IMG/VR virus record: IMGVR_UViG_3300005403_000018
Location: 1 to 37,336 of that record
Length of the DNA: 37,336 nucleotides
Strand: one strand, 5' to 3'
Origin: a virus
Taxonomy: Duplodnaviria > Caudoviricetes
The translations under genes were made by a program, and so were the position numbers. Of the stretch, positions 1 to 32,162 are shown in pieces. The notes beneath the pieces were generated by a model. It was not told where the DNA came from. It saw only the letters and a program-made list of their open reading frames with translations, and made no database searches. Each line of letters begins with the position of its first letter. The first letter of the stretch is position 1.

Positions 1-36
1 CAGTCCGCAAGTCCTCCGCAATAAACTCTTTCTGCT
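1..36. repeat. Imperfect terminal direct repeat of 37301..37336 (circular-genome overlap)
   Basis: cagtccgcaagtcctccgcaataaactctttctgct vs aagtccgcaaatactcctcaataaacgcttgctgct, 30/36 identical. ATG at 51..49 supplies the missing TerS start. Confidence 0.8.
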
Positions 37-50
37 TTTACCAAACGACA

Positions 51-266
51 TTAGAAGCCTTCTGCTTTTTCCGCCTTGATACTTGATTGTAATACCGACT
101 TGACCTGTTTCAATACTTCCATGTCTGCCTTTAGTTCGGCATACCGTCCGGCAATGTGCGCAAACTCAATCTGCTTGTCTAACATCTCTTGACCAACGCG
201 CTCTAGTAGTAACACCTTCCCGCCGTAATCAAGAGATAATATGTCTGTCTTTGATAGTTCACTCAT
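51..266 (-). CDS. Hypothetical small coiled-coil protein upstream of TerS
   Basis: 71-aa ORF whose TAA overlaps the next ATG (TAATG). Confidence 0.7.
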   Translation of the reverse strand: MSELSKTDILSLDYGGKVLLLERVGQEMLDKQIEFAHIAGRYAELKADMEVLKQVKSVLQSSIKAEKAEGF

Positions 267-362
267 GCGTAAACTCTATACCTTCCGAGTAACCAGTCAA
301 AAAATATAATCCACTTTTTCCAGATTGTCATAAGTCCTCACTCAATTTATTATAGCATAAAA

Positions 363-394
363 GCAAACGACCCGGTATTATCCAGGTCGCTTAC
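363..394 (-). terminator. Intrinsic terminator-like hairpin after cassette 1
   Basis: GCGACCTGGATAATACCGGGTCGT stem-loop followed by TTGCTTTT on the minus strand. Confidence 0.6.
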
Positions 395-429
395 CGCATT
401 CACCTCGTGCGAGTGTAACTCCAAAATTA

Positions 430-699
430 TTATACTACTTTCTTTGGCCTCCCGCCTTTCTTCCCGTTCTCAGCGGACGAACGCGCTTTCTTTTCTGTTT
501 TGATACCACCTAATACTTTTGCCGATTGAGATATTTTCAACATATTACTGGCTGCGTATCCATCGCTTTGATCTTTGAAAAATTCTGTTTGAATATTTTT
601 TATTTTTTCTTTCAATTCGTTATTTTCAATTATTAAATCATCGCGCTCTTTAGTTAATTTGTCTATTTGTTCTATTGCTTCGCTATAAAGATTTTCCAT
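430..699 (-). CDS. Coiled-coil protein with C-terminal 'KTEKKARSSAENGKKGGRPKK' putative DNA-binding tail (last gene of cassette 1)
   Basis: Start moved to MENLY at 699. The C-terminal ~30 aa are near-identical to those of 7031..7399. Confidence 0.75.
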   Translation of the reverse strand: MENLYSEAIEQIDKLTKERDDLIIENNELKEKIKNIQTEFFKDQSDGYAASNMLKISQSAKVLGGIKTEKKARSSAENGKKGGRPKKVV

Positions 700-994
700 T
701 TTGTTTTTCCATTCTTCTCTGTATAATCCACTCATCAAAAAATATTCCTGGGGCTTTAGAATATTTCCAATGAGAAACAAATTCTGTTACGTCGCCATGG
801 TCGCTTGTCCTCATCCATCGCTTATCGGATGGAGAAAATAAACATACTGCCGGGTAATAACCTTGAAGCAAACAAAAACATAGTATTCCTAAAGATACGT
901 TTTTATTCTTGTGCTTTGGTAGTTTTTTATTTACTAGAATCCAACCACTTAGAAAACACATTATCTTTGAAAGTAATACATATTGAATTTTCAT
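683..994 (-). CDS. DUF551-like small phage protein
   Basis: W-I-x-V-x-x-x-L-P ... V-S-H-W pattern; ATGA coupling to the upstream ORF. Confidence 0.55.
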   Translation of the reverse strand: MKIQYVLLSKIMCFLSGWILVNKKLPKHKNKNVSLGILCFCLLQGYYPAVCLFSPSDKRWMRTSDHGDVTEFVSHWKYSKAPGIFFDEWIIQRRMEKQNGKSL

Positions 995-1176
995 TTTTCC
1001 TCTAATTTACTAAAACAATACTCACCAACAACATGGGATGTTTCAAATTTTTCATTCCAAACATTTGCTATTTTTCCAGTTTCAAGATGATATTTTTTGC
1101 ACACATAACAACAAAAATGTCTTGAAATTGCACCTTCAACCGGATCTATTATTGATAAAATTATTATGTTTTTCAT
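991..1176 (-). CDS. Hypothetical Cys/His-containing protein
   Basis: 61-aa ORF, ATGA-coupled on both sides. Confidence 0.65.
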   Translation of the reverse strand: MKNIIILSIIDPVEGAISRHFCCYVCKKYHLETGKIANVWNEKFETSHVVGEYCFSKLEEK

Positions 1177-1337
1177 TTTAAGTTGAATTGCTTTGATTCT
1201 AATTTGGCAGCTTTTTTATTTGAGAAAACTTCAATTACTTTTCCATTTTCATTTACAACTGCATAACCAGCGCCATAATAAAAATTTCCGTTTTCAAGTT
1301 CGTGTTTTCCTGCGTAAAGTTTTTTTGTTGTTGTCAT
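1173..1337 (-). CDS. 54-aa hypothetical protein, first gene of cassette 1 (not in the ORF track)
   Basis: MTTTKKLYAGKHELENGNFYYGAGYAVVNENGKVIEVFSNKKAAKLESKQFNLK, strong SD GGAGGAG, TGA overlaps the next ATG. Confidence 0.75.
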   Translation of the reverse strand: MTTTKKLYAGKHELENGNFYYGAGYAVVNENGKVIEVFSNKKAAKLESKQFNLK

Positions 1338-1369
1338 TTTGTTTTCTCTCCTCCGTTGTCTATGTAATA

Positions 1370-1398
1370 ATAATACAACCTATTGATTGGTTTGTCAA
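1370..1398 (-). promoter_or_regulatory. Sigma70-type promoter with a palindromic operator in the spacer (cassette 1)
   Basis: TTGACA-17-TATTAT; spacer contains AACCAATCAATAGGTT. Confidence 0.8.
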
Positions 1399-1431
1399 TA
1401 GGGAATTACATAATTTAACACGGATTTAACA

Positions 1432-1486
1432 CAAAACACCCCCTATAAAGGGGATGCTTTGCGGAGGAGTGGAGAAACGTTTACCA
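1432..1486 (-). ncRNA. Candidate ~55-nt sRNA carrying an anti-SD tract
   Basis: TTGAAA-16-TAATAT with TG extension (1492..1519), then TTTCTCCACTCCTCCG, then a CATCCCCT/AGGGGGTG hairpin and T-tract. Confidence 0.4.
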
Positions 1487-1593
1487 TTAATATATTACCA
1501 CGTTTCTCTGTTATTTCAAGTCCTGTTAGGGTTGGTTATTCCTGTATGTGTGAAAACTCTACACCGTTAGTATGCCTAGTCAGGACGTGAAAA

Positions 1594-1860
1594 CTATTTC
1601 GTGGCGTTTTTCAAGACATCATAAATTCCTGATGCGATCAATCCTAACGCAAGTCCAAACACGATTGTGCCAAACCAGCCACTAAATCCAACCGGAACTG
1701 CGATGCTCAACTGATAGCCGATCCCGAGCACAAGGCCAATCGCCATTGATACGAGTTTTACGGCAACACCTTGTAATCCCAAACTCTTGACCCATTCAAC
1801 CAGGCCAAGCACAACCAAAACCAGCGGAACGCCTGCAACTAAATAACTTGTGAAATCCAT
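1594..1860 (-). CDS. Probable holin (three hydrophobic segments)
   Basis: 88 aa, 'LVEWVK' and 'GLIASGIYD' holin-like motifs, basic C-terminus, SD AAGGAG, upstream TGATATAAT. Confidence 0.7.
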   Translation of the reverse strand: MDFTSYLVAGVPLVLVVLGLVEWVKSLGLQGVAVKLVSMAIGLVLGIGYQLSIAVPVGFSGWFGTIVFGLALGLIASGIYDVLKNATK

Positions 1861-1890
1861 TTTTTCTCCTTGAATAGTTTTATTATATCA

Positions 1891-2091
1891 CTAACATTTT
1901 ACTACATGTTTTTTTCTCTGCATTTTCCTCTCTTTCAGTATCATTTCAAGTAAGTTTTCCCATCCTTCGTCTCGATTATGTCCCTTGACTTCACCGGCGC
2001 ATATTACCTCTTTGTTGACCGAGACAACGTAGGTATAGTTTGAACTTTCGTTGGATCCACCCTCATTGTGGATTGTGATTATCAGCATCAT
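1891..2091 (-). CDS. Hypothetical protein
   Basis: 66-aa ORF coupled to the rtcB stop. Confidence 0.7.
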   Translation of the reverse strand: MMLIITIHNEGGSNESSNYTYVVSVNKEVICAGEVKGHNRDEGWENLLEMILKERKMQRKKHVVKC

Positions 2092-3236
2092 TATCCCTTG
2101 ATTGATGCAAGTGGTTTTAATTCAACAAGTATTTCTACAAGGTCTTTTTGGTTTTCCATGACAATGTCAATATCCTTGTATGCGCCTGGAGATTCGTCAA
2201 GGTCTTTTGCAGTTCTTAGTCCATGAATTACGCCTTCCATTTTTCGTTGTTCATCTTCAAGATTTAGAGACCTTTCTGCTTCCTTGCGCCCCATTCTACG
2301 CCCCGCCCCATGAGAGCATGAAGTAAAACTGTCTGGATTACCTAAACCCCTGACAATATAACTTTTAGTCCCCATTGAACCAGGAATAATTCCGGTAGTA
2401 TTGGCCGTTGCTAAAGTAGCGCCCTTGCGATGAACAATTACATCTTTTCCAAAGTGATGTTCAAATTTTGCGTAGTTATGATTTATGTTTATTGATTCTA
2501 CAATTTCAGCATTCATAAATCTATAAAAAACAGCAAAGATATTATCCATCATTAATTGACGGTTGGCTTTTGCAAACTCCAAACAGTAATTCATGGCTTC
2601 AAAATATTCCTTACCTTCCGGCGTTTCAATTGGTAAAAACGCCAGGTCTTTGTCTGGAATATCCGATTGCCAACGCTCACATAGTGCCTGTGCTTTTGCG
2701 TGGAAAACCTTTGCGGTCTTTAAACCAAAGTTACGGCTACCAGAATGGAGCATAATCCAGATATGTCCATCATTCCCTTTTTGGATTTCAATGAAGTGAT
2801 TACCACCGCCCAATGTTCCTAATTGCTTTTTAGATGAATTTAGTTCTTGCTGAATAATTGGAATATCAGGCGCGTTATCAAATCCACCCCACGCTTGATT
2901 TTCTTGTTGGCGATCGAACCCTAAGGGCACTACTTCTCGAATTTTACCCATGAGTAGTTTTAGTGAATCTGTATCGATTTCAGTTAGTGATGTTTTTACA
3001 GCACTCATACCACAGCCAATATCCACACCAACGGCATTTGGTACAATCACGCCCTTGGTTGCCATAACCCCACCAATAGGCATTCCGTATCCCTGGTGAG
3101 AATCCGGCATAATCGCAATGTGCTTGAACGCAAACGGAAGTTTAGCCAGGTTCAACGCCTGTTGTAATGCGCCGGCCTCAATATCATCTAACCATAATTT
3201 TATTGGAATTCTCTCACTTGTAATTACGCTCTTCAT
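2091..3236 (-). CDS. rtcB: RtcB-family RNA 2',3'-cyclic-phosphate/5'-OH ligase
   Basis: Motifs MPDSHQGYGMPIGG, AVGVDIGCG, LGTLGGGNHFIE, HSGSR, NHNYA, HRKGAT, IPGSMG, SCSHGAGR, DESPGAYKDI. Confidence 0.97.
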   Translation of the reverse strand: MKSVITSERIPIKLWLDDIEAGALQQALNLAKLPFAFKHIAIMPDSHQGYGMPIGGVMATKGVIVPNAVGVDIGCGMSAVKTSLTEIDTDSLKLLMGKIREVVPLGFDRQQENQAWGGFDNAPDIPIIQQELNSSKKQLGTLGGGNHFIEIQKGNDGHIWIMLHSGSRNFGLKTAKVFHAKAQALCERWQSDIPDKDLAFLPIETPEGKEYFEAMNYCLEFAKANRQLMMDNIFAVFYRFMNAEIVESININHNYAKFEHHFGKDVIVHRKGATLATANTTGIIPGSMGTKSYIVRGLGNPDSFTSCSHGAGRRMGRKEAERSLNLEDEQRKMEGVIHGLRTAKDLDESPGAYKDIDIVMENQKDLVEILVELKPLASIKG

Positions 3237-3237
3237 A

Positions 3238-3561
3238 CTACCTCAATCCTAATTCCCTGAGTTTATCAATGACTTGCATGGCGGTTTGAAGGGTATCACC
3301 TGAATAACCACAAATGTTTTGATTGACTTCATCAACAAGCATTTTCATGGTTGGCCTTTCTAAATCATCAAATGAGTTGTAATCTTCAAATGGGGTAGGA
3401 CACGAACAGCCGCTATCCCTTGCGGTGAAAAACTGATTATTTTTATCCTTCCAAATCACACGCGTATCAAATTCGTATGAACCGGATGAATATTCAATCT
3501 CTCCAACTAATTCAAGTCCCCATGATTCTGGTGCATAATAAACATTGTTTTCGTATTCCAT
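3238..3561 (-). CDS. Hypothetical phage protein (DSGCSCP motif)
   Basis: 107-aa ORF, SD GGAGAG. Confidence 0.8.
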   Translation of the reverse strand: MEYENNVYYAPESWGLELVGEIEYSSGSYEFDTRVIWKDKNNQFFTARDSGCSCPTPFEDYNSFDDLERPTMKMLVDEVNQNICGYSGDTLQTAMQVIDKLRELGLR

Positions 3562-3571
3562 ATTCTCTCTC

Positions 3572-3799
3572 CTATTGATACCTGAATGTCTTGTCTAATG
3601 CGTTGCTCACGTTTTGCGCACCGAACCGCTTTTCGAGTTCTCGTCTGTTCTTACCATTGTACAACTTCCTTATCTCTTGATAGCGTGATTGTTTCCATGC
3701 GCTTATCATTTCTTTTGCTGTTTGTGTCATTATGTCATACTCCACAAATTCCAGAACACTCATTATCCCAATCCCTTTCATCTTTTGTACTAGACACAT
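3572..3799 (-). CDS. Hypothetical protein (start uncertain)
   Basis: Fills the gap in a tightly packed minus-strand operon. Confidence 0.55.
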   Translation of the reverse strand: MCLVQKMKGIGIMSVLEFVEYDIMTQTAKEMISAWKQSRYQEIRKLYNGKNRRELEKRFGAQNVSNALDKTFRYQ

Positions 3800-3959
3800 T
3801 AATCCGTTTAACTTTTGCTTTCGTTTTCAGAATATAGTCTCCGTCTATGTATCTTTGCGCATCCTCTTTTTTCTCAAAAAGATTAATCATATCGTTGTTG
3901 TATAAACCAACGCAGGCATACGGAGCGCCATTAATTGTGATGATAAACATTTGTCTCAT
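3735..3959 (-). CDS. Hypothetical protein
   Basis: ATGA-coupled ORF. Confidence 0.6.
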   Translation of the reverse strand: MRQMFIITINGAPYACVGLYNNDMINLFEKKEDAQRYIDGDYILKTKAKVKRINVSSTKDERDWDNECSGICGV

Positions 3960-4267
3960 TGTTCACCAATCCCTTTCATCTTCAACCAGGATAAACAGAC
4001 GGCCTCGCCAAATTCACCCTCTTTGACAGTGGAAAGTTGCATACGTTGATCGGTTGGCAACTCAAAATAGAGTGGCATATACAGGTTGGCGCCGGTATAA
4101 AAACTTACCGGTATCCAACAAGGTTTTATGCCTCGCAAGTAGTTTGCAAAGCAATACCAGTTTCCTCGCGGAGAATAAACAGGCTCAAATAAGCATTGGT
4201 CAACCGTTGGAAGATAATCTGGCATTGGTTCACGCGCCTTCGCTATGACTTCGTTTAGGTTACTCAT
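3956..4267 (-). CDS. Hypothetical protein
   Basis: Start moved to MSNLNE (ATGA overlap with the upstream stop). Confidence 0.65.
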   Translation of the reverse strand: MSNLNEVIAKAREPMPDYLPTVDQCLFEPVYSPRGNWYCFANYLRGIKPCWIPVSFYTGANLYMPLYFELPTDQRMQLSTVKEGEFGEAVCLSWLKMKGIGEQ

Positions 4268-4686
4268 CCTTCCCCCTTCAACTTTTCCATGAGGGCGTGA
4301 TGTAAGGTGATGACACATTCTGGATTATGTTCAACAGTAGGCCGTGCGCCACAAAAATCACAAAACTTTGGCGCAACTCCGCGAAAACCCGGCTTTCCTT
4401 TTTGGCTATAAACTGGCAAAAGACCAGCAAATAACCGTTCCGCATCTTCTCCGCACTCTTTGAGTAGGGAGCGCAACCTATGAATTTCGTCTAACACATT
4501 CCAGTCAAACTCGTCTTTGTTGTCTGCCTTGAGTGATACCGCAACGGCAAGTCTATTGTTTAGTGTCTCGTTTTCAGCACGGAGAGCAATCAATTCTTGT
4601 AGATATGTTCCAAGTTCTTTAGTGCTTACATCACCGCAAACATAGCCTCCGGCAAATCGTTTTATTATTTCTTGTGGTTCCATCAT
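4264..4686 (-). CDS. Hypothetical protein with C-terminal CxxC..H..C Zn-binding motif
   Basis: CDFC...HNPEC; coupled ORF. Confidence 0.7.
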   Translation of the reverse strand: MMEPQEIIKRFAGGYVCGDVSTKELGTYLQELIALRAENETLNNRLAVAVSLKADNKDEFDWNVLDEIHRLRSLLKECGEDAERLFAGLLPVYSQKGKPGFRGVAPKFCDFCGARPTVEHNPECVITLHHALMEKLKGEG

Positions 4687-5069
4687 TCACCTACCTTTGG
4701 AAGGTGTCGCCAGTGGGTCATTGTTCCCTTTTCGTTGTGGCGTACATCGCACGGATATTTTAGTTTTGTTGATGGATTACCATAGTCAACCGGTATCCAT
4801 TCTTCAAGCACTCGAATCCGCTCCGCCTGTTCCTTTTCGACTGACTGGAGACGGATGAGTTCTGCCATTTTTGACGCTGTTTTTGCGATGTATCTTGCTG
4901 CCAATCCAGAAGCTAACTCCAGAGAATCGCGCATATCCTTATAAAACTCATGGAACATGTTGACAACTTTGGTTTGTTGTTCACTCGCCGGAAGTTTTTC
5001 AATTTCATCAACCAAAGCGCGATACTTCTTGAAATACGGACGTTCATAATCCTTTTTTTCGTCCATCAT
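4683..5069 (-). CDS. Hypothetical protein with DUF551-like C-terminus
   Basis: WIPV...THWRHLP. Confidence 0.65.
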   Translation of the reverse strand: MMDEKKDYERPYFKKYRALVDEIEKLPASEQQTKVVNMFHEFYKDMRDSLELASGLAARYIAKTASKMAELIRLQSVEKEQAERIRVLEEWIPVDYGNPSTKLKYPCDVRHNEKGTMTHWRHLPKVGE

Positions 5070-5254
5070 TACCCTACTTTCTTCTCTATCCTGACCTGAT
5101 TGCCTTTTACCCAGATTATCTCAGGCCGATAACCGAACCGTTTCACAAATTGATCTATCGCGTCTTGTACCGTCTCACCTTTTGTAAGTGAGTATCCTTC
5201 ACATTCTACGGTTGACATTTTAGCCCATGTATCTATTTCGATGATTTCAGTCAC
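5069..5254 (-). CDS. Hypothetical protein
   Basis: 61-aa coupled ORF. Confidence 0.6.
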   Translation of the reverse strand: MTEIIEIDTWAKMSTVECEGYSLTKGETVQDAIDQFVKRFGYRPEIIWVKGNQVRIEKKVG

Positions 5255-5729
5255 AAAACACCTCTATTGTATTTAGCTTTGCAAACTCGCCATATAAATC
5301 TATTGCATTTTTATTGTATGCCAAGGCCGCCTCCTCTATTGTTTTAAAACATCCGAGGTGAATATGTTTTCTGTTTTTGCAAATTTTTGCCATGTATGGA
5401 TTGCTTGTTCCTGGAGTATAATAAACGCCCTTATATCCCGTCGTGTTATTTTTACCCAATAAAGAGTTCGCTTGATTCTGAGACGCGCTACAAATCCTTA
5501 AATTTTCTTTTCTGTTGTCAAGAGTATCGTGATTTATATGGTCAACATATTCACCTTCCATAGCGCCCAAAATAACTCGGTGCATTTTTATGTGTTTAAA
5601 TGTACCGTCAACGCGCTTATTTCCATCGGCATATCCATAATTAAAATTCCACTTGCAAAAGTTTATTTTTTCAAAATCTTCATCGTCAATCTTTGAAAAT
5701 TTTCCTTGAGTTAATGGGATTAATATCAT
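5247..5729 (-). CDS. HNH-AP2 homing endonuclease
   Basis: MHRVIL...VDHINHDTLDNRKENLR (HNH) and GYKGV...HLGCFKTIEEAALAYN (AP2). Start at MILIPLTQG with SD GGAG. Confidence 0.92.
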   Translation of the reverse strand: MILIPLTQGKFSKIDDEDFEKINFCKWNFNYGYADGNKRVDGTFKHIKMHRVILGAMEGEYVDHINHDTLDNRKENLRICSASQNQANSLLGKNNTTGYKGVYYTPGTSNPYMAKICKNRKHIHLGCFKTIEEAALAYNKNAIDLYGEFAKLNTIEVFCD

Positions 5730-5739
5730 GTTACTCCAA

Positions 5740-5852
5740 AATATAAACAGCAGCCAATTACCAGGATAGTGTTTTCTCAGGAACACGGAGGTAAAAAGCT
5801 GCTGCTTATACATTATCTTATTCCATGTTCCTGAGTAACTCTATTGTACCAC
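5740..5852 (-). promoter_or_regulatory. Extended -10 promoter and structured leader of the HNH-AP2 gene
   Basis: TGGTACAAT; complementary blocks 5822..5835/5776..5789 and 5790..5807/5745..5762. Confidence 0.65.
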
Positions 5853-6668
5853 ATTATCACAAAAAATTTCTGGATATTTCTTTGCGAGTGCCTTGAATAT
5901 AGCCTTGGTCAGCTCTTTGTCATAATCCCAAAAATGGCATACTTTTTCAAGCGCAGATATAACGCCGATTTTCCAATTATATTGGTCTTTTGTTGAACAT
6001 ATTGAAACAGCAAAGTCAACCGATCCGCTATGACAATTTTTGGCATACGTCACCGGGTTACCTACGATGATCTCAAAATGATTATGTCCAACCGAGAATT
6101 TCAACCGCTTGCCGATCATCTCTGTTGCGTCCATCATGTCTTTTTGCACACAGATTAACCTCTGTTGCCACACGTCCGCTACGGTTGACATGAGCTTAAG
6201 TTCGTGTGATTTTTCAGTGATGATTGAAGCCTGTCTGCCTAATGCGCGCGACACTTCTTCCAACAGTTCTTTATAGTGATCTCGCATGGCTTCGGCTGAA
6301 TTACAGCGTGATTGTAAGTCGTCATAATCACGTATCTTTTGAAGCCATGACTTCTTTTTGGGCTGGACGCCAAAGGCGATTTTACAATCAGGAGAAATGC
6401 CAAACCGGGTTGCCGCATACCTGATTGCGTCCGCTTGATGTTCACAAACCCTGTCTATCGCTTTTTTGTAAGTGGTTGCAAAATTATTCAATCCGGTAAT
6501 CTTGACGCTCTTTGTCACCGTCCCGTCCTGGTTCATTGTTCCACCTGGATACTCAATGGAGTATTTTCCAAAATTACTTATAGAGGACGGCGTGCATTCT
6601 CGTAATCCAAGACCAGTTAGTTCAATTGTTTTATCGCCTTTATTTTCAATCGCTATGGTAAAGTTCAT
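5841..6668 (-). CDS. Hypothetical protein with central coiled coil
   Basis: 275-aa ORF, SD GGAGGAG. Confidence 0.8.
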   Translation of the reverse strand: MNFTIAIENKGDKTIELTGLGLRECTPSSISNFGKYSIEYPGGTMNQDGTVTKSVKITGLNNFATTYKKAIDRVCEHQADAIRYAATRFGISPDCKIAFGVQPKKKSWLQKIRDYDDLQSRCNSAEAMRDHYKELLEEVSRALGRQASIITEKSHELKLMSTVADVWQQRLICVQKDMMDATEMIGKRLKFSVGHNHFEIIVGNPVTYAKNCHSGSVDFAVSICSTKDQYNWKIGVISALEKVCHFWDYDKELTKAIFKALAKKYPEIFCDNVVQ

Positions 6669-6754
6669 TTTCTCCTCCGATCAATTATCCAAAATATTAT
6701 TACCGATGGTATTACTATGATTAGAAATATAGGGACTGGTAACATTGGTTATCC

Positions 6755-6967
6755 TCAAAATGGAATTTCATCTTCTGAATTTAATAGGCGCTCTTCTTCA
6801 ATTTCTTGTTCCAAGTCATGCGCCCGCTCTGCCATTTGGCGGTCTTGTTCTTCAGCCCACGCTTGATAATATCCATCACGCCCGTGTCCAATATCGCCGT
6901 AACACATCGAACATGACCTTCCTTGTCCCTCTGGTATTTCACTTCCGCAACTTGTACAATGTGGCAT
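6755..6967 (-). CDS. Small Zn-ribbon protein with acidic 'DEIPF' SSB-like tail
   Basis: CTSC...CSMC; SD GAGGAGAG. Confidence 0.75.
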   Translation of the reverse strand: MPHCTSCGSEIPEGQGRSCSMCYGDIGHGRDGYYQAWAEEQDRQMAERAHDLEQEIEEERLLNSEDEIPF

Positions 6968-7030
6968 TTCTCTCTCCTCGTTTTACTTTTACTATAACAA
7001 ATTACATTGGTTATGTCCGTAAAAAAGTCA

Positions 7031-7399
7031 TTAAATCGCTTTCTTTGGCCTTCCGCCTTTTTTGCCATTTTCGGCAGACGAACGAGATTTCTTTTCTGTT
7101 TTGATTGACCCTAGAATTGACGCGGCGGATTTTATACCGTCTGATGGTTTTGCGGCTCGAATTGACATAGCCATATTTTTACCAAAATCAATAACTCGTT
7201 CGTTTGTTTCGCCGACCAAACTTCCCTCAATCCATTTAGCTGAATATTCAAGAGTATTTGTATCAAGTGCGCGACCTTCTGAAACGCGTTTATCTATTAG
7301 CTTACGAACCGTAACTTCGTTTTTAAGTTCTTGTATTTCTGTTTTCAATAAACCAATTACAATTAACGCTTTTTTTAAATCCGTTATTTCTTCACTCAT
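7031..7399 (-). CDS. Protein with C-terminal 'KTEKKSRSSAENGKKGGRPKK' tail (last gene of cassette 2)
   Basis: Tail paralogous to 430..699; SD GGAG. Confidence 0.8.
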   Translation of the reverse strand: MSEEITDLKKALIVIGLLKTEIQELKNEVTVRKLIDKRVSEGRALDTNTLEYSAKWIEGSLVGETNERVIDFGKNMAMSIRAAKPSDGIKSAASILGSIKTEKKSRSSAENGKKGGRPKKAI

Positions 7400-7408
7400 T
7401 TTATTCTC

Positions 7409-7606
7409 CTAATACACAATCTCGGATAGTCGTTTTTCTATCCATTGTTTACGGCGTGGGTCAACAAACCCTGACATATTCTTTAACTCATTTGTCAATC
7501 GAAGAGCTTCGTTATGCAATCCGCAGGATGTTATTGTGGCCTCAACTCCCGGATGTTTTTTGAATATGTATTGCCAATCATCATGTGAAATATCAGTTAT
7601 GTTCAT
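7409..7606 (-). CDS. Hypothetical protein (cassette 2 cargo)
   Basis: 65 aa, SD GGAG. Confidence 0.7.
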   Translation of the reverse strand: MNITDISHDDWQYIFKKHPGVEATITSCGLHNEALRLTNELKNMSGFVDPRRKQWIEKRLSEIVY

Positions 7607-7615
7607 TATTTACTC

Positions 7616-7891
7616 CTAATTTGCATTATGAAAAACTTCAAGAATTTCAATAGCATCTTTTAATGCTTGTCTTTTTTCTGCCAAATAAACCATGTTGTTT
7701 CTACTTTGTGCGCGTCTCTGTGAACATCCCTGCATAGAACCAGTAGAATTAATAGCACGCAAATGAGACTCACTAGATTTTTTCAACTCTCGCTCTATTT
7801 TGAATAATTGTAATTCAAGCTCTTGTTTTTTATAGTTTTTTGCAAGTTGTTTTGACCAATTTGAATAATCTTCATACTTCCAGTCTGCCAT
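7616..7891 (-). CDS. Hypothetical protein (cassette 2 cargo)
   Basis: 91 aa, SD AGGAG. Confidence 0.75.
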   Translation of the reverse strand: MADWKYEDYSNWSKQLAKNYKKQELELQLFKIERELKKSSESHLRAINSTGSMQGCSQRRAQSRNNMVYLAEKRQALKDAIEILEVFHNAN

Positions 7892-7930
7892 GTTATCTCC
7901 TGTGCGTATCCCTGCGCACCCCGGATTATT

Positions 7931-8149
7931 TTAGAAGTCACCGGCTAAATTTGCATTATGCCAACCGAGTGACCATTGTTTGAGAATTGATTGAATTACA
8001 TTTGATTTTGAGAAGTCACTTGTTGAATATTTTCCGACCAACTTCATTACTTCTTTATCTAAAACCGGGGCTGATTTTATTCCATTTACAAAAGCCTGTT
8101 GTCCTAAAACTTCGGATGTTGCAACGTCGATTTTCTCTTGAGCTGTCAT
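7931..8149 (-). CDS. Hypothetical protein, first gene of cassette 2
   Basis: 72 aa; leader GAGGAGAGAAAACAAAATGACA identical to cassette 1. Confidence 0.8.
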   Translation of the reverse strand: MTAQEKIDVATSEVLGQQAFVNGIKSAPVLDKEVMKLVGKYSTSDFSKSNVIQSILKQWSLGWHNANLAGDF

Positions 8150-8180
8150 TTTGTTTTCTCTCCTCGTTTGTTATGTATAT

Positions 8181-8209
8181 ATAATACAACTAATCGTTAG
8201 GTTTGTCAA
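8181..8209 (-). promoter_or_regulatory. Sigma70-type promoter with a palindromic operator (cassette 2)
   Basis: TTGACA-17-TATTAT; spacer contains AACCTAACGATTAGTT. Confidence 0.8.
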
Positions 8210-8250
8210 TAGGGTTGATGTTAAATCGCCGTTAAAGTTTGCCTACGATT

Positions 8251-9144
8251 TCAAACATCCGTGTAATCATCTTTGAACACCGGCCTCATGTCTGGCCCAG
8301 GCACGTTTATCACAACCCCGCCGTTTATCCTGGAAGTAAGATAACCGAACTCCATAGGCAATTCTTTAGGCGCTTTGTTTGATGCCATGACCGTTAATAG
8401 ATTGTCTCTTTGTGTGAACCTGTCATCAATCAATGTAAAGATTGTTTCCGTAGCCCAGCTTGTAAGGTTTGCCCGGTCAAACTCATCAATACACAAAACC
8501 TTGATTGATCGGTAAAACTCCAAAACGGTTTGTACTTCCCTTGTGCCATTAGGCTCTCCGAACCTTGCCCTAATATCAGATAGTAAATCAGCCATCGTTG
8601 AATAAAACGCCCTCAGCCCTACCCCCCGAAGTCCATTGATGACTGCTTTCAACAAGTGAGACTTACCGCTCCCGAAAGTACCATAGAACGTGTAAAATCC
8701 GTGCGCGTCCTGGTTCATTGACAAAATATGCGCTATGACATCATGTGCCTCTTTTTTAGGCTCTGCGCTTCCAGTGATCGAAAAGTCATACAAGCCTTTT
8801 TGTAAATCCATCCCCTCTAATCCGCAGTTCTTTTCTAACCAGGCTTTCATGTTCCCTTGACTGCATACTGGGCAATCGGCCTGTTTTGTCTCACCTGCAT
8901 ACCACCCGCTATATTCGGTATCCCCATTCACGTTTCCCGCCGGGATCCATTTTGACACAACTCCAGGTGGATAGCGTAATGGTTTTGCGTCCCTTGCCTT
9001 TTCAAACACGAACACATATCCAAGCCCGCCACAATTTGAACACTGACCGTCCGTTGATGATATTCGTAATGGGATCGCAATTCCTGAATTTATTAGCCCT
9101 CTAAACTCTTGTGGGTATTGTACTGGTAGATTATCGGCTATCAT
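8251..9144 (-). CDS. DnaC/IstB-like AAA+ helicase loader with N-terminal Zn finger
   Basis: Walker A GTFGSGKS, Walker B LCIDE, ASN sensor, SR finger, two CxxC; follows the initiator. Confidence 0.88.
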   Translation of the reverse strand: MIADNLPVQYPQEFRGLINSGIAIPLRISSTDGQCSNCGGLGYVFVFEKARDAKPLRYPPGVVSKWIPAGNVNGDTEYSGWYAGETKQADCPVCSQGNMKAWLEKNCGLEGMDLQKGLYDFSITGSAEPKKEAHDVIAHILSMNQDAHGFYTFYGTFGSGKSHLLKAVINGLRGVGLRAFYSTMADLLSDIRARFGEPNGTREVQTVLEFYRSIKVLCIDEFDRANLTSWATETIFTLIDDRFTQRDNLLTVMASNKAPKELPMEFGYLTSRINGGVVINVPGPDMRPVFKDDYTDV

Positions 9145-11470: not shown

Positions 11471-12040
11471 TTATGTCACTGAAACGTCAGAATCTGAAGG
11501 TTCGTTATTATCTGGCGAGGTTTTCACATTGTGTTCTTCAACAAGCTCTTTATAAACCGCGTTCTTGAATGCTTCCCAGTTTGTTTGCTCACCATTCCTA
11601 TTCGCTATCATCCAGGCGCTTCTCAATAAGCTGTTTGCGTTTTCGTTGTATGCCGGCTTGTTTTCGGGCACCGTTTTATTTTCGGTACTCGCTTCGACGT
11701 CCAAATAAGTACCGTCGACAATATGCATGGTGTTTTCTTCTACCTTACGCATCAACTCGAAACACCGGATAGGAAGTCCGTATTTTCCTTCTTTGGCCTC
11801 GCCTTCTGTGTCGTAAGTTGTGGCACCCATGATTGCATGACATAGATCATCAACGTTCCTTGCGTACACATTCCAGATCCACCAAATGAAGCGCTGTTCC
11901 TGGGATTCTTTGAAGCGGAGCGCTTGAAGTTCAATCCGTAGCCGGCGGTTTTCGTTTTGAAAATACTCAATAGGTGTTTTTTTGTGTTCAACTATCATTT
12001 CAATATGCTGTTTTAGTCGTTTGCGATCTTCTGGTTTCAT
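11471..12040 (-). CDS. Hypothetical protein
   Basis: 189 aa, SD AAGGAG. Confidence 0.75.
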   Translation of the reverse strand: MKPEDRKRLKQHIEMIVEHKKTPIEYFQNENRRLRIELQALRFKESQEQRFIWWIWNVYARNVDDLCHAIMGATTYDTEGEAKEGKYGLPIRCFELMRKVEENTMHIVDGTYLDVEASTENKTVPENKPAYNENANSLLRSAWMIANRNGEQTNWEAFKNAVYKELVEEHNVKTSPDNNEPSDSDVSVT

Positions 12041-14062: not shown

Positions 14063-14389
14063 TTACTGAATCAGTTTGAATTCGTCACCAATTGCGATCT
14101 CATAGGCGGTTACTTCCAATCCAGCCGGATAATCAATGCCCTCTTTTTTGTAGAATCTCGGTTCTTTGACCTGTCCGGTTACTGTGATGTGATCGCCTTT
14201 TTTTAGCGCATCATTGGCAACGGCTAATTCTTCCCACGCCGTCACGTTTACCCACACGCCTTTTTTGTATCCTTCTTCTTTGTTGCCACCAGTGTACATG
14301 GATAAACCAATTTCTAATACCTGCTTACCTTGTGGCGTAAAGCGTGATTCTGCTTTCATTACCGTGCCAGTAAATTTGATGTTAGACAT
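14063..14389 (-). CDS. ssb: Single-stranded DNA-binding protein
   Basis: OB-fold SSB pattern (RFTPQGK, WVNVTAWEELA, LKKGD.I.V.G); follows ERF. Confidence 0.85.
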   Translation of the reverse strand: MSNIKFTGTVMKAESRFTPQGKQVLEIGLSMYTGGNKEEGYKKGVWVNVTAWEELAVANDALKKGDHITVTGQVKEPRFYKKEGIDYPAGLEVTAYEIAIGDEFKLIQ

Positions 14390-14975
14390 GCGCCACCTTT
14401 TCAAATTCCGAATATGCCATTTTCTTTTGGATCTTGCCCGCCGTCAAAAGTTCGTTGATCGCGGTAACAGCGTCTTTGTTTTCAAGTCCGCGTTCTTTTG
14501 CGAACAATGACACGACTTTTGCAGACAGATAATCAACCATTTCATCTTGTTTTACTTCCTGTTTAGATCCAGCGCCAGTATCTTTGTGTGAACCTTCGCT
14601 ATCATTATCTTCATCTGCATAAAGCCCCAGGATAGCGGCAAGTCCATAGCGCCGTAAATAAGTGATCGTTTTTCCGGCTTCTTGCGAGATATTACTTCCA
14701 CTGATAGGAACAATCAAAGAGGTTGAAATAAACTCACCTGATTCATGGAGTAGCATCGTTGTCACCCCTGCCTGACCGTCCTCACCTTCGACTAACTGAC
14801 TGACCGCCAAACCGTGCTTTGACAAAACAGGTTTGCACGTTTCGATCACCGCCCCCAAGTCTGCATACTTTGACTTGAAAAACGGATTGACCGAGTTCAT
14901 TTGTACGCTCTTGAATTCTGCCTGCGCCATAACAAGCGCCTTGCTCAAACTTGCGATTGATTCACTTTTGTTCAT
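14382..14975 (-). CDS. erf: ERF-family single-strand annealing recombinase
   Basis: NPFFKSKYADL, LLHESGE, G..ITYLRRY.L.AILG...DEDND. Confidence 0.92.
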   Translation of the reverse strand: MNKSESIASLSKALVMAQAEFKSVQMNSVNPFFKSKYADLGAVIETCKPVLSKHGLAVSQLVEGEDGQAGVTTMLLHESGEFISTSLIVPISGSNISQEAGKTITYLRRYGLAAILGLYADEDNDSEGSHKDTGAGSKQEVKQDEMVDYLSAKVVSLFAKERGLENKDAVTAINELLTAGKIQKKMAYSEFEKVAHV

Positions 14976-14977
14976 CC

Positions 14978-15295
14978 CTAATCCTCCAATCTCTTATTAC
15001 AATCTGGACAATACGTCTCACCAACGTGAGCGCGTTCATGCTGGCAATATCTCTGACGGCTCAACTCATACGCACGTTCGCGCGCCTTGTTACATTCGAG
15101 GGCGTTATCGAACATTGCATCATAATTTCCGACTGCTATCCAATCTTCGACCATTTCGTTGTGACGGCGTTCCATCTCGTCTGCAATATCACGCTGTTCA
15201 CGGTATGCTTTTTCAGCGGGTGAAAGTGTATCCGGCATAAGTGATTCCCATCCGTTTACAGGTTCGTTTGAAGTTACACCTACTCCGAGTGTCAT
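14978..15295 (-). CDS. Hypothetical protein with C-terminal C.H...CPDC
   Basis: 105-aa coupled ORF. Confidence 0.7.
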   Translation of the reverse strand: MTLGVGVTSNEPVNGWESLMPDTLSPAEKAYREQRDIADEMERRHNEMVEDWIAVGNYDAMFDNALECNKARERAYELSRQRYCQHERAHVGETYCPDCNKRLED

Positions 15296-15534
15296 TCGAT
15301 ACCTTCCTGTCTATTCTCGATCTCGTTGATTACCGTATGTCCCGTGTATTCTATCGTTTTGCCAATCGTGCCGATCAACGGAACACGGATGCTGTTGTTC
15401 TTGACATCCCATTCTCGCAGAATGAGACCCCGGATAACCTTGCTCATGTCCGACCCTTCCGCCAGGTTGTCAAGTTTCGATCTCGTTTCTGGATCAAATT
15501 TTATCAATACTTGCTCTGTCATTCGTTTTGTCAT
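15292..15534 (-). CDS. Ribbon-helix-helix (CopG/Arc-like) regulator
   Basis: QVLIKF strand, then ETRSKLDNLA and MSKVIRGLI helices. Confidence 0.7.
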   Translation of the reverse strand: MTKRMTEQVLIKFDPETRSKLDNLAEGSDMSKVIRGLILREWDVKNNSIRVPLIGTIGKTIEYTGHTVINEIENRQEGIE

Positions 15535-16200: not shown

Positions 16201-16441
16201 GTTAATTTAAGATTCTTTACGCGGATTTAATACCGTAATAGACATTCGATGTCAAGAATGGTTTATGGATAGGCATAAATCGCACGGGCGCGCCATGTGT
16301 TTATATTCAACAAATCAACGCTACACAATGCGCATGTGTGCTTGTACCTTACTTTTGAAATTGGGGCTTCTGGGCGGCATAACTGACATATTGGTTATTA
16401 TCCGTGTTTTATAGTGACAATAATCAATTTTATAGTTATAA

Positions 16442-16704: not shown

Positions 16705-16791
16705 GTTAAATCGCCGTTAAGTTATTATCCATTCCACTATGTATACAATCTTGTTAGGTTATAACCGTCAAATATAACTGTTTTAGGTAAA

Positions 16792-29881: not shown

Positions 29882-32038
29882 TTAGACAGTCACGCCGTAA
29901 GTAATGGCGCTTGCTTCCGTATCACGCTGTTTCAAACCAACGCGGAGCATGGCAACGATCTCATTACTATCGCTGTTAGCGAACCGGGTTGTTTCCATAG
30001 TGATACGCCGTCTCCAACCGAGTTTCCACTGATCCCAGCGAACCGCGAGAATTGCACCGTAAAGGTTCGCGGTTGTGTCGGTTGTGTTCACCTTACCAGC
30101 GCTGTTGGCTTTGCGGGCACTTGACATAAAGTGCATTGAACCACTGACCATGAGAGGATAACCCCATAAACCGGTCAGTTTACCACCTTCAAGAGTGGGT
30201 GAAGCAAACACGTCACGGGTCAAGACTTCAGGAAGTGCTAAGGCTTTGTAGTAGGTGTTCGGGTCAACGATGAAAGCACACTTTGAAGTGTCAAGTCCGT
30301 TGATACCAGCGCTACCCATGAGTTTCATAGTTTCAAGGAAATCTTCAACGGTCAACGCGCCGCCAGCCCGTGAGTTGGCAGTCGTGGTAACTAAGCAGGA
30401 TTTTCTAAAACCGTTGAAAGCCAGGTAATGCCCGCCGGTAACTTCAGCCCCACCAATATTATTGATATTGGTAGAATCGGTTGTCTCAGTATCGCCATCG
30501 ATGATAGCAGAATCGAGATATTCAGCACCGGAAGTTGCAAGCTGTTGTCGAACCTGATTAGCAAACGGGATTAAGGAACTTTCTTCCATCTCACCAGTCC
30601 ACACCACACGAGCTCCCATTTTAGCAAGGGTCAAAGAAGCATTACCAGTTGCTACACGGGATGAAGTAATGGTAGGAGCGGGAGCTCCAACGGTTGAACC
30701 ATTGGTCGTATTCTCTGAAATGTTATACCAAATCGGATCGGTTGATTCCAACGGAAGGGTAATGCTTTCGTAACCCTGTGGAACTTCAACGGACGGGATT
30801 TTGCTCATAACATTCGCCTGAATACGGATCGATTCCCAAAGTGAGGTTGAATATGCAGCACCAACCCACTCATCGCCATAACCAGATGAAGTCGAGTAAT
30901 CAATTTCACCAGCTTTAATTCCGGCGGCTTTCATAGCCTTTCGGCCTTCAGCACCAACGCTTGATTGATCTTCTTCCAGTTTCAGAGAGAGAGCTTTCAA
31001 CGCGCCTTCGCTCACGTCCTTTTTGGCAGACTTCAACACACCAATCAAAACGGCGGTATCAGCTGCATCAAGGTTATCGTAGCGGTCAGTGTCCGAGAAT
31101 TTCTTCACGTAAACGCCACCAGGAAGCCGTTTCTCAGCCGCGAATTGTTTTGTCAATTCTTCTTCTTTGGCTTTGACGGCCTTGTCAACTTCTGCCTGAA
31201 TTTCGGCAGCTTTTGCGGCTTTGGCCTGAGTATCGGCTTCTTTTGCGGCCAACGCGGCATCAATCATTTTTTGAACCTCTTCGTTTTCCATCTTGTTACT
31301 CCTTGTTTGAATGGTTAAATTATCTGCCGCCTCATTGGCCTCTGGCAGTTTATCAACGTCTGGAATTTCTAGTCCTAATTTCTCATAATGCGCTTTCATT
31401 ACCGGAAGCGCTACTGCATACGCATTGGCAGGATGTCTCTTGTCGCCTTCATCAATCAATGACCCTTCTACAACAGGCCACTTGTCAATGTGCCCACCGG
31501 GTTGATCTCTAATAATGTGAGGGATTGAACCGCTTGAAGCCCTGGCAAGTCCGCGTTTAGCAGCATCCCAAATCCTCTTTGCTAATTCACTTGTCTTGTC
31601 AAGAATAGCTCTATACCAATGACCCTTTTCATCCGTGTGATCGTAGGTCATCATTCCAATAGGCTCTGGATCCCCCTGTGGCTTTCCTTCAGGCGTGAAC
31701 CCGTGATAATAGTATGCAGGAATGGTTTTATAAATCTCGTGCTGTGTCACGGTCTTTGCATCGAAGTATTGACCGTCTGTGTCCTTTCCGTTATCCGGCC
31801 CGCCAAAAGGAACTAACAACACGTCTAATTCCATATCTGCTAAAGCCTTGATAACGGTAGACGCGGTAATCTTGTATTCAGTCAAACTCATAGTCATAGT
31901 TGATTTAGTTGTCTTGTCATCCTCATCTGGTTCCATTTCGTTAGTCAGTTCATGGATACGTTTAGCAGATGACCGAATCTCTTTGATACGTTCTTTGTCA
32001 TAACCGTTGTTACGTGCACCCATTTTCAAATCATCCAT
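29882..32038 (-). CDS. Prohead protease-scaffold-major capsid protein fusion (HK97 fold)
   Basis: N-terminal KDTDGQYF, YYYHG, ASSGS, WPVVEGSL protease-like motifs; Ala/Lys/Glu helical linker; C-terminal capsid (D.AIIDGD, FNGFRK, LWGYPL). Confidence 0.85.
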   Translation of the reverse strand: MDDLKMGARNNGYDKERIKEIRSSAKRIHELTNEMEPDEDDKTTKSTMTMSLTEYKITASTVIKALADMELDVLLVPFGGPDNGKDTDGQYFDAKTVTQHEIYKTIPAYYYHGFTPEGKPQGDPEPIGMMTYDHTDEKGHWYRAILDKTSELAKRIWDAAKRGLARASSGSIPHIIRDQPGGHIDKWPVVEGSLIDEGDKRHPANAYAVALPVMKAHYEKLGLEIPDVDKLPEANEAADNLTIQTRSNKMENEEVQKMIDAALAAKEADTQAKAAKAAEIQAEVDKAVKAKEEELTKQFAAEKRLPGGVYVKKFSDTDRYDNLDAADTAVLIGVLKSAKKDVSEGALKALSLKLEEDQSSVGAEGRKAMKAAGIKAGEIDYSTSSGYGDEWVGAAYSTSLWESIRIQANVMSKIPSVEVPQGYESITLPLESTDPIWYNISENTTNGSTVGAPAPTITSSRVATGNASLTLAKMGARVVWTGEMEESSLIPFANQVRQQLATSGAEYLDSAIIDGDTETTDSTNINNIGGAEVTGGHYLAFNGFRKSCLVTTTANSRAGGALTVEDFLETMKLMGSAGINGLDTSKCAFIVDPNTYYKALALPEVLTRDVFASPTLEGGKLTGLWGYPLMVSGSMHFMSSARKANSAGKVNTTDTTANLYGAILAVRWDQWKLGWRRRITMETTRFANSDSNEIVAMLRVGLKQRDTEASAITYGVTV

Positions 32039-32051
32039 GTTTACTCCATAT

Positions 32052-32162
32052 AACAAAAAAGACGTGATGCAAAATCAAGCCTTATTCAGGCTATCAGTTG
32101 CAACACGCCACTCTTACAAGAGTCTCTAGCGGTTCGCTATTTAGTTATGAATATTATAACAC
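32052..32162 (-). promoter_or_regulatory. Promoter and multi-hairpin leader of the capsid operon
   Basis: TGTTATAAT; TAGCG/CGCTA, ACTCTT/AAGAGT and GCGTGTTGCAA/TTGCATCACGT followed by TTTTTT. Confidence 0.55.

Follow-up and report, generated by a model that had tools for sequence, protein, structure and literature searches.

A protein tail of about 30 residues with an invariant GGRP motif as a likely autorepressor of exchangeable gene cassettes in phages

The closest described counterparts of the system that we report here are the acr-aca operons, the dhiTA toxin-antitoxin pair and the PeSL cassettes of T4-type phages. Our subject is a protein tail of about 30 residues with a GGRP motif, which ends the last gene of each of two small-gene cassettes in the virus record IMGVR_UViG_3300005403_000018 (Duplodnaviria; Caudoviricetes), and a palindrome in the promoters of these cassettes; the entire record of 37,336 nt was analyzed and is called the window below. 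The Aca autorepressors, including Aca1-10 (PMC9410906) as well as Aca14 and others (PMC13551039), are helix-turn-helix (HTH) or, in the case of Aca14, ribbon-helix-helix (RHH) proteins, according to the available parts of these two papers. In the Dickeya dadantii dhiTA operon (DUF4160/DUF2442), DhiA acted on its own promoter as a repressor in a reporter assay, with about 50% repression by the antitoxin alone and 70-99% by toxin-antitoxin complexes (PMC8198452, available sections). The PeSL cassettes have strong sigma-70 promoters as repeated modules on either side of non-essential small genes, and recombination through these modules shuffles the genes (PMC2839356, available sections).

Both cassettes of the window (A and B, Table 1) lie on the - strand, and every feature reported for them in an earlier reading of this DNA, hereafter the original prediction, is present. 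Each cassette starts with a TTGACA-17-TATTAT promoter, and these are the two best among 35 promoter-like sites in positions 1-9000. The promoter is followed by an identical 22-nt stretch with the ribosome-binding site (RBS) and start codon, by three unrelated open reading frames (ORFs), and by the tail gene, so that the proposed common architecture of the two cassettes is confirmed. The two tails share 71% identity over 35 aa, an 82-nt repeat between the cassettes has 82% identity, and the string TTGACAAACC-N9-GTT, which has two copies in the window, did not appear in any of 100 shuffles. The palindrome described in the promoter spacer is likewise there, but it is better written as WWCCYR-N4-YRGGWW than in its original form; the spacer of cassette A matches this consensus at 11 of 12 positions. 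We propose that the tail likely binds the spacer palindrome and represses the promoter of its own cassette (probability about 0.8). The original prediction had already cast the tail as a minimal repressor of this kind, and the enrichment, covariation and tail-less control described below all argue for it, while binding itself stands as a prediction.

For the comparison of phage loci, we wrote the site with a variable gap, WWCCYR-N(g)-YRGGWW, and divided the tails into short ones (AAxxLG class) and long ones, which carry a 4-residue GxxG insert. Perfect sites were counted at loci with at least 1 kb of upstream sequence. Among short-tail loci, the perfect site occurred at gap 4 in 27 of 57 and at gap 6 in one, whereas 21 of 55 long-tail loci had it at gap 6 and one at gap 4; the downstream controls gave 2/53 and 2/49, respectively. 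Counted at any gap from 4 to 9, perfect sites were present upstream of 51 of 105 phage loci versus 15 of 105 downstream, and boxes resembling -35 and -10 elements flank 36 of 57 upstream sites versus 1 of 18 downstream sites. A hold-out set of loci dissimilar to these was picked on protein sequence only, after the rule had been fixed. In this set, gaps 4 and 6 were found at 16 and 0 of 37 short-tail loci and at 0 and 11 of 20 long-tail loci (p=8e-8); at 70% redundancy the gap 4/gap 6 counts were 8/1 for short versus 1/6 for long tails (p=0.009).

The same association emerged when the search started from the promoter. A promoter-pattern scan of IMG/VR returned 13 loci, two of them repeating the window. 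Seven of the other 11 have a spacer ending in GGTT, and all seven carry a tail 0.4-0.9 kb downstream with different genes in between; the remaining four, whose spacers lack the GG, have no tail within 3 kb. The exact gap-4 promoter string was found at 12 loci. Downstream sequence was available for 11 of them, and each of these has a short tail 152-1301 nt away (five of the contigs were new). The exact gap-6 string retrieved only its two source contigs in IMG/VR, and five loci in metagenomes, all five with a long tail and two of them with new proteins. Both combinations occur on one contig, where L140 pairs a long tail with a gap-6 site (11/12 matches) and L172 pairs a short tail with a gap-4 site. 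At the predicted site the CC/GG core is invariant and the flanks are A/T, and a matrix trained without five loci of the window's family ranked the two window spacers first and second in the 37 kb (12.3 and 12.0 bits, next site 8.6). Tails with two inserts had gap 8 at two of 10 representatives, L154 (12/12) and L136 (11/12), and no perfect site at the five with 1 kb upstream, which suggests gap 8 for this class on two loci only. As separate observations, at L081 and L097 a tandem pair of gap-6 sites, 27-37 nt from each other, closely precedes tail genes of ~53 aa, and a second promoter-operator-like match lies about 1.9 kb downstream of the tail gene in contig G376 (G376:C1:10484-10503), possibly for regulation in trans.

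The tail pattern was also found at 122 loci in GTDB genomes. DUF2442 proteins make up 58 of the 73 bacterial tail proteins with long upstream sequence, and when 41 of 67 picked upstream ORFs were tested, 28 were DUF4160, one HicA, and one ParE. A perfect site within 1 kb was present upstream at 44 of 70 bacterial loci and downstream at one of 70, mostly 570-650 nt before the tail, which corresponds to the operon promoter. The bacterial gaps range from 4 to 10 and go with the type of linker, not with the rule seen in phages: of 16 loci with the 9-residue GxxG linker, eight have a site and all eight have gap 6, and the 8-residue linker goes with gaps 6-9. The half-site precedes DUF4160-DUF2442-tail operons in Acidobacteria, Proteobacteria, and Cyanobacteria, which have no other cassette sequence in common with the phages, and a gap-4 site precedes a HicA gene followed by a short-tail protein (L344). 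In a set of DUF2442 genes gathered by family membership, from which two loci with short upstream sequence and one unpublished locus were excluded, the perfect site was present at 6 of 9 loci with a tail and at 2 of 56 without (p=3e-5); the palindrome therefore follows the tail, not DUF2442. The enrichment and covariation checks named in the original prediction gave positive results, namely the enrichment of the palindrome upstream of tails relative to downstream controls, in phages and in bacteria, and its covariation with the tail in both search directions; the tail-less control agreed with them. We propose that the tail may be the means by which a subset of DUF2442 antitoxins controls its own promoter. 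Two DUF2442 genes (L467 and L479) have decayed tails and no operator upstream, possibly a joint loss, and in L336 a single ORF comprises DUF4160, DUF2442, and the tail.

Several observations weigh against this interpretation. The half-site consensus was derived by eye from promoters upstream of tails, and the site of cassette B, read from the sequence, matches it at only 10 of 12 positions. At about half of the tail loci a perfect site within 1.5 kb is lacking. The spacing rule has two exceptions in phages, a short tail with gap 6 (L072) and a long tail under a gap-4 promoter common to a short tail (L096), and the DUF2442 fusions do not keep the 4-versus-6 rule cleanly (gaps 4-6 for the short and 6-10 for the long class). 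In the DUF2442 control, five of the nine tail-bearing loci were seeds and the unseeded ones gave 2/4, while the tail-less background rose to 20/56 when 11 of 12 matches were accepted. Finally, a tree of the 24 shared core columns requires 11 changes and has one supported pair and no well-supported branch; the contrast between short and long tails may thus trace to one evolutionary event.

The tail belongs to a large family. Tail-only scans gave 247 unique tails (181 representatives below 85% identity), and its size by pattern, estimated from partial scans, is about 1,400 stretches in IMG/VR and 4,300 in GTDB. A profile search returned 9,762 clusters at E<=0.001, some of them probably compositional because the motif is basic and glycine-rich. 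The family is nearly absent from cultured phages, with two weak matches in 50,697 records. Some tails stand alone as genes of about 35-50 codons that immediately follow a strong promoter. The GGRP motif is present without change in all 45 rows of both alignments, and the AT-hook-like GRP core flanked by K/R is present. Codon differences in the tail DNA of 11 close relatives are mostly synonymous (495 versus 172 non-synonymous), and therefore the protein is what is conserved.

No entry of Pfam, NCBIfam, PHROG, or PDB matched the tail above threshold, and in particular there was no Pfam or NCBIfam match to an HTH or RHH family. Sub-threshold matches included SASP (1 of 45 members, E=0.096), KGG (2 of 45), and DUF6291 (10 of 45, best E=0.04). 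The AlphaFold model of a 39-residue tail has helices at residues 5-16 and 20-31 and a GGRP arm (pLDDT 87). Foldseek found no match to this model in PDB, the best Z in a wide VIA-align search was 2.9, which is uninformative at 39 residues, and sequence searches of PDB returned only compositional matches to alphaRep and histone H2A. In the ESM Atlas, unnamed clusters matched at 0.91, and the only named clusters, at 0.80 or less, were DUF2442. Our literature search, whose coverage excluded most subscription papers, found no description of the tail motif, and GGRP is absent from the text and supplement text of PMC13551039. The tail is a domain absent from the databases searched, with a helix-helix-GGRP architecture in the predicted model. 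Several phage contigs have two tail genes, some of different class (L096/L101; L188; L140/L172; L266/L267; L069/L070). In L042/L043 the tail is fused to a UPF0150/HicB-like domain, and the profile matches include very long proteins with many tail-like repeats (P0001, P0003, and P0033).

As a mechanism, we suggest that two tails, probably as a dimer, would bind one WWCCYR-N4-YRGGWW site between the -35 and -10 boxes, and that occupancy of the spacer would block the sigma-70 polymerase. The C-terminal helix (helix 2) together with the GGRP arm would read each half-site, and the glycine/alanine-rich helix 1 would set the distance between the arms, with one helical turn for each base pair in each monomer; by our own geometry, 4 residues (about 6 angstroms) would correspond to approximately one base-pair step along the groove per monomer. 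That this ruler of length and spacing is causal appears somewhat better than an even chance. Cargo expression would surge early and later be damped, like that of acr-aca operons, cassettes A and B would cross-repress, and the cargo would change through recombination between the conserved ends and through gene-by-gene non-homologous joints. A bolder and tentative extension, which we would not bet on, is that the tails form an undescribed class of ~30-residue sequence-specific repressors in which the insertion of one helical turn (GxxG) adds 2 bp to the operator and creates orthogonal pairs (gaps 4, 6, and perhaps 8), and which would serve both as the DNA-binding domain of DUF2442 antitoxins and as an equivalent of Aca, a marker for thousands of operons with counter-defence roles in uncultured phages.

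The same data could be read in other ways. Promoter and tail may merely hitch-hike together as conserved ends, with the palindrome read by another host or phage factor and the tail acting as a non-specific nucleic-acid-binding or localisation tag. A short, basic, glycine-rich tail with sub-significance likeness to histone H2A tails, KGG, and SASP would suit such a role, as would the loci without a perfect site and a possible single origin of the short/long split. However, the half-site stands before bacterial tail operons that are devoid of other phage cassette sequence, it is rare before tail-less DUF2442 genes, and its gap follows the insert in the protein; we therefore consider this explanation improbable. 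Slightly less probable still is a tail that binds the site and only activates or fine-tunes, or that needs a partner, either a toxin or a cargo protein, as co-repressor. Near-consensus sigma-70 promoters need no activator, and the promoters here are near-consensus with spacers of 16-18 nt; moreover, stand-alone tail genes lie behind such promoters without any partner, and the phage fusion partners are unrelated to one another. The repression figures for Dickeya dhiTA, where complexes exceed an antitoxin that is apparently tail-less (PMC8198452), point in favor of a partner.

Least probable of all, and very unlikely in our judgment, is that the palindrome is no operator and works as a nucleic-acid structure, namely a cruciform or a recombination or att site for cassette exchange. 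The dyad is longer in the window's family, where it reads CCTATTGA-N8-TCAATAGG, and cargo is exchanged just downstream of it. Nevertheless, its arms are only 6 bp long and tolerate degenerate, non-complementary changes, the points of exchange lie beyond the RBS and within genes rather than at the dyad, and no integrase is found among the 63 window proteins. The dyad is also absent from the RNA because it lies upstream of the transcription start. Autorepression by the tail thus remains our preferred reading.

The interiors of the cassettes are highly variable. The 102 operator-to-tail cassettes contain 128 cargo proteins in 112 families, 99 of which are singletons, and in 45 of the cassettes the tail gene is not preceded by any separate gene. 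Annotation was sparse, with 3 of 104 proteins matched in PHROG and 3 of 67 in Pfam; the only anti-defence leads are Lar-like restriction-alleviation domains in L001, L006, and L012 and DUF932, which occurs once. No cargo match was named anti-CRISPR in the PHROG and Pfam scans of cassette proteins, and the window's own cargo had no informative family match. We rate a mainly anti-defence cargo below an even chance. At one orthologous locus the swapping of interiors that the original prediction had envisaged is directly visible: in relative L010 the flanks of cassette A are 89-95% identical and the cargo is wholly different. Genes are also exchanged one by one. The second gene of L001 is 91% identical to cargo B3, while the other cargo of L001 differs, and L006 has the first and last genes of L001 and lacks this second one. 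In G376 the tail is fused in frame to a homologue of a free-standing window gene, and the identity simply ends at the tail junction; in turn, the tail of G379 has a fusion partner that shares 88% identity with a free gene in G376. Since the tail is appended to ordinary genes in this way, the N-termini of tail genes look like passengers that supply a start codon. The ERF protein, which the original prediction had linked to the swapping of cargo, is a candidate agent of end-to-end exchange only, and it does not explain the joints to ordinary genes.

Table 1. Positions of the cassette parts and related features in the window
Feature	Position	Strand	Remark
Cassette A promoter TTGACA-17-TATTAT	1370..1398	-	
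Cassette A predicted operator, gap-4 palindrome in spacer	1377..1392		genome's top-scoring site
Cassette A 22-nt RBS/start	1332..1353	-	
Cargo A1, 54 aa	1173..1337	-	no family
Cargo A2, 61 aa	991..1176	-	no family
Cargo A3, 103 aa	683..994	-	no family
Tail gene A, 116 aa from TTG	430..780	-	coiled-coil-like N-terminus plus tail
Tail A	433..525	-	short class, no GxxG insert; predicted DNA-binding module
Terminator-like hairpin 3' of cassette A	362..395	-	flank 95% identical in relative L010
Terminator-like hairpin between holin gene and cassette A	1439..1453	-	
TTWAC-N5-TTTWAY repeat upstream of cassette A	1415..1430		putative separate, lineage-specific promoter element
Cassette B promoter TTGACA-17-TATTAT	8181..8209	-	
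Cassette B predicted operator, gap 4	8188..8203		genome's second-best site
Cassette B 22-nt RBS/start	8144..8165	-	
Cargo B1, 72 aa	7931..8149	-	weak PHROG match of unknown function only
Cargo B2, 91 aa	7616..7891	-	no family above cut-off
Cargo B3, 65 aa	7409..7606	-	91% identical to second cargo gene of L001
Tail gene B, 122 aa	7031..7399	-	unrelated N-terminus plus tail
Tail B	7034..7129	-	short class; predicted DNA-binding module
TTWAC-N5-TTTWAY repeat upstream of cassette B	8220..8235		
TTWAC-N5-TTTWAY repeats, cassette-less sites	16216-16231, 16705-16720		
Free-standing gene	11471..12040	-	89% nt identity to G376 homologue up to tail junction
ERF-family annealing protein	14382..14975	-	candidate agent of end-to-end exchange

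Tail gene A has an alternative ATG start at 699 (89 aa), which would avoid most of the overlap with A3. In the window's family, CCTA is conserved immediately 5' of the -35 box (window 1379-1402 and 8204-8214; L001, L006, L008, L010-L012, and L036); it produces the extended dyad mentioned above and is possibly a third half-site.

The box TTAA-N7-TTAA, which the original prediction had counted as part of the system, did not hold up as such. It is exact in the two window copies and absent from all seven relatives compared, and only 1 of 55 operator-promoters has it. The box belongs to an 11-bp-period repeat, TTWAC-N5-TTTWAY, with four window sites in either orientation, each at most 16 nt from a TTGAC promoter; the pattern was drawn from its own sites, which makes a chance estimate flattering. 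Two of the four sites have no cassette, and the repeat also adjoins promoters of relatives. We regard the TTAA box as a separate, lineage-specific promoter element and not as part of the tail system. The repeat may be a site of a host OmpR/PhoB-type regulator or of a phage protein. An 80-aa ORF (15292-15534, - strand) with an N-terminus that looks RHH-like by eye is a candidate reader; it has no Pfam or PHROG match.

Nearly all genes of the window are on the - strand. Pfam and PHROG scans identified terminase, portal, capsid, tape measure, endolysin, holin, ERF, and single-stranded DNA-binding (SSB) proteins, as well as a replication initiator, a DnaC-like loader, a methyltransferase, and RtcB; no integrase, dedicated recombinase, or transposase was found among the 63 proteins scanned. 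A homologue search with the holin and a cluster look-up pointed to no host organism. Cassette A is located between the holin gene and the genes preceding the small terminase, and cassette B after the DnaC-like gene. Two other genes of this 37-kb phage deserve mention, the RtcB RNA ligase between the cassettes (2091-3236, - strand) and a 724-aa ORF (29882-32056, - strand) that joins a protease-like and a major capsid region.

If binding is confirmed, the tail would be among the smallest sequence-specific repressors, and it would have a visible code of length and spacing that could provide orthogonal parts. Like aca genes, the tail and its operator would open hundreds of small genes that lack annotation to guilt-by-association analysis, and the tail could flag phage cargo genes of unassigned function.

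AT-hooks, the GRP arm of serine recombinases, alpha/beta SASP, and KGG motifs all have G-R-P or NGxxGG flanked by basic residues, and the GRP core of the tail, flanked by K/R, resembles an AT-hook in this respect. Nevertheless, the plain AT-hook suggested originally is not borne out, as the predicted site has an invariant CC/GG core in place of an AT tract and the predicted fold consists of two helices and the GGRP arm. The cassettes differ from integron and transposable cassettes in that no dedicated recombinase or transposase was found among the 63 window proteins. With the PeSL cassettes they share gene exchange between conserved modules, as observed in L010. However, the PeSL modules are DNA elements composed of a promoter and a terminator stem-loop with no encoded regulator (PMC2839356, available sections), whereas the 3' end of the tail cassette is protein-coding and under selection on the protein. 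A terminator-like hairpin occurs 40 nt upstream of promoter A only, and none was listed at promoter B.

The likeness to dhiTA lies in the bacterial carriers, most of which are DUF2442 genes behind DUF4160 genes; the window's cassettes, in contrast, have neither a DUF4160 nor a DUF2442 gene. Dickeya DhiA was considered as an already studied member of the tail family and rejected on its C-terminus, which according to the reverse primers is an acidic LEEK-stop and not a GGRP tail; the available part of the same paper does not mention operator mapping (PMC8198452). The acr-aca operons resemble the cassettes in layout: a strong phage promoter whose core contains an inverted repeat drives small genes that vary, and the operon closes with the gene of a conserved regulator. 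They differ in that the tail has ~30 residues, matches no HTH or RHH family, and is in most cases joined in frame to a cargo gene, and no known acr was found among the cargo. A rule linking protein length to operator spacing is not mentioned in the available parts of PMC9410906 and PMC13551039. Because the HTH/RHH test failed and no acr was found, we did not file the tail system as Aca; judging by the sequence comparisons, the tail is likely a dimeric autorepressor in an acr-aca-like layout.

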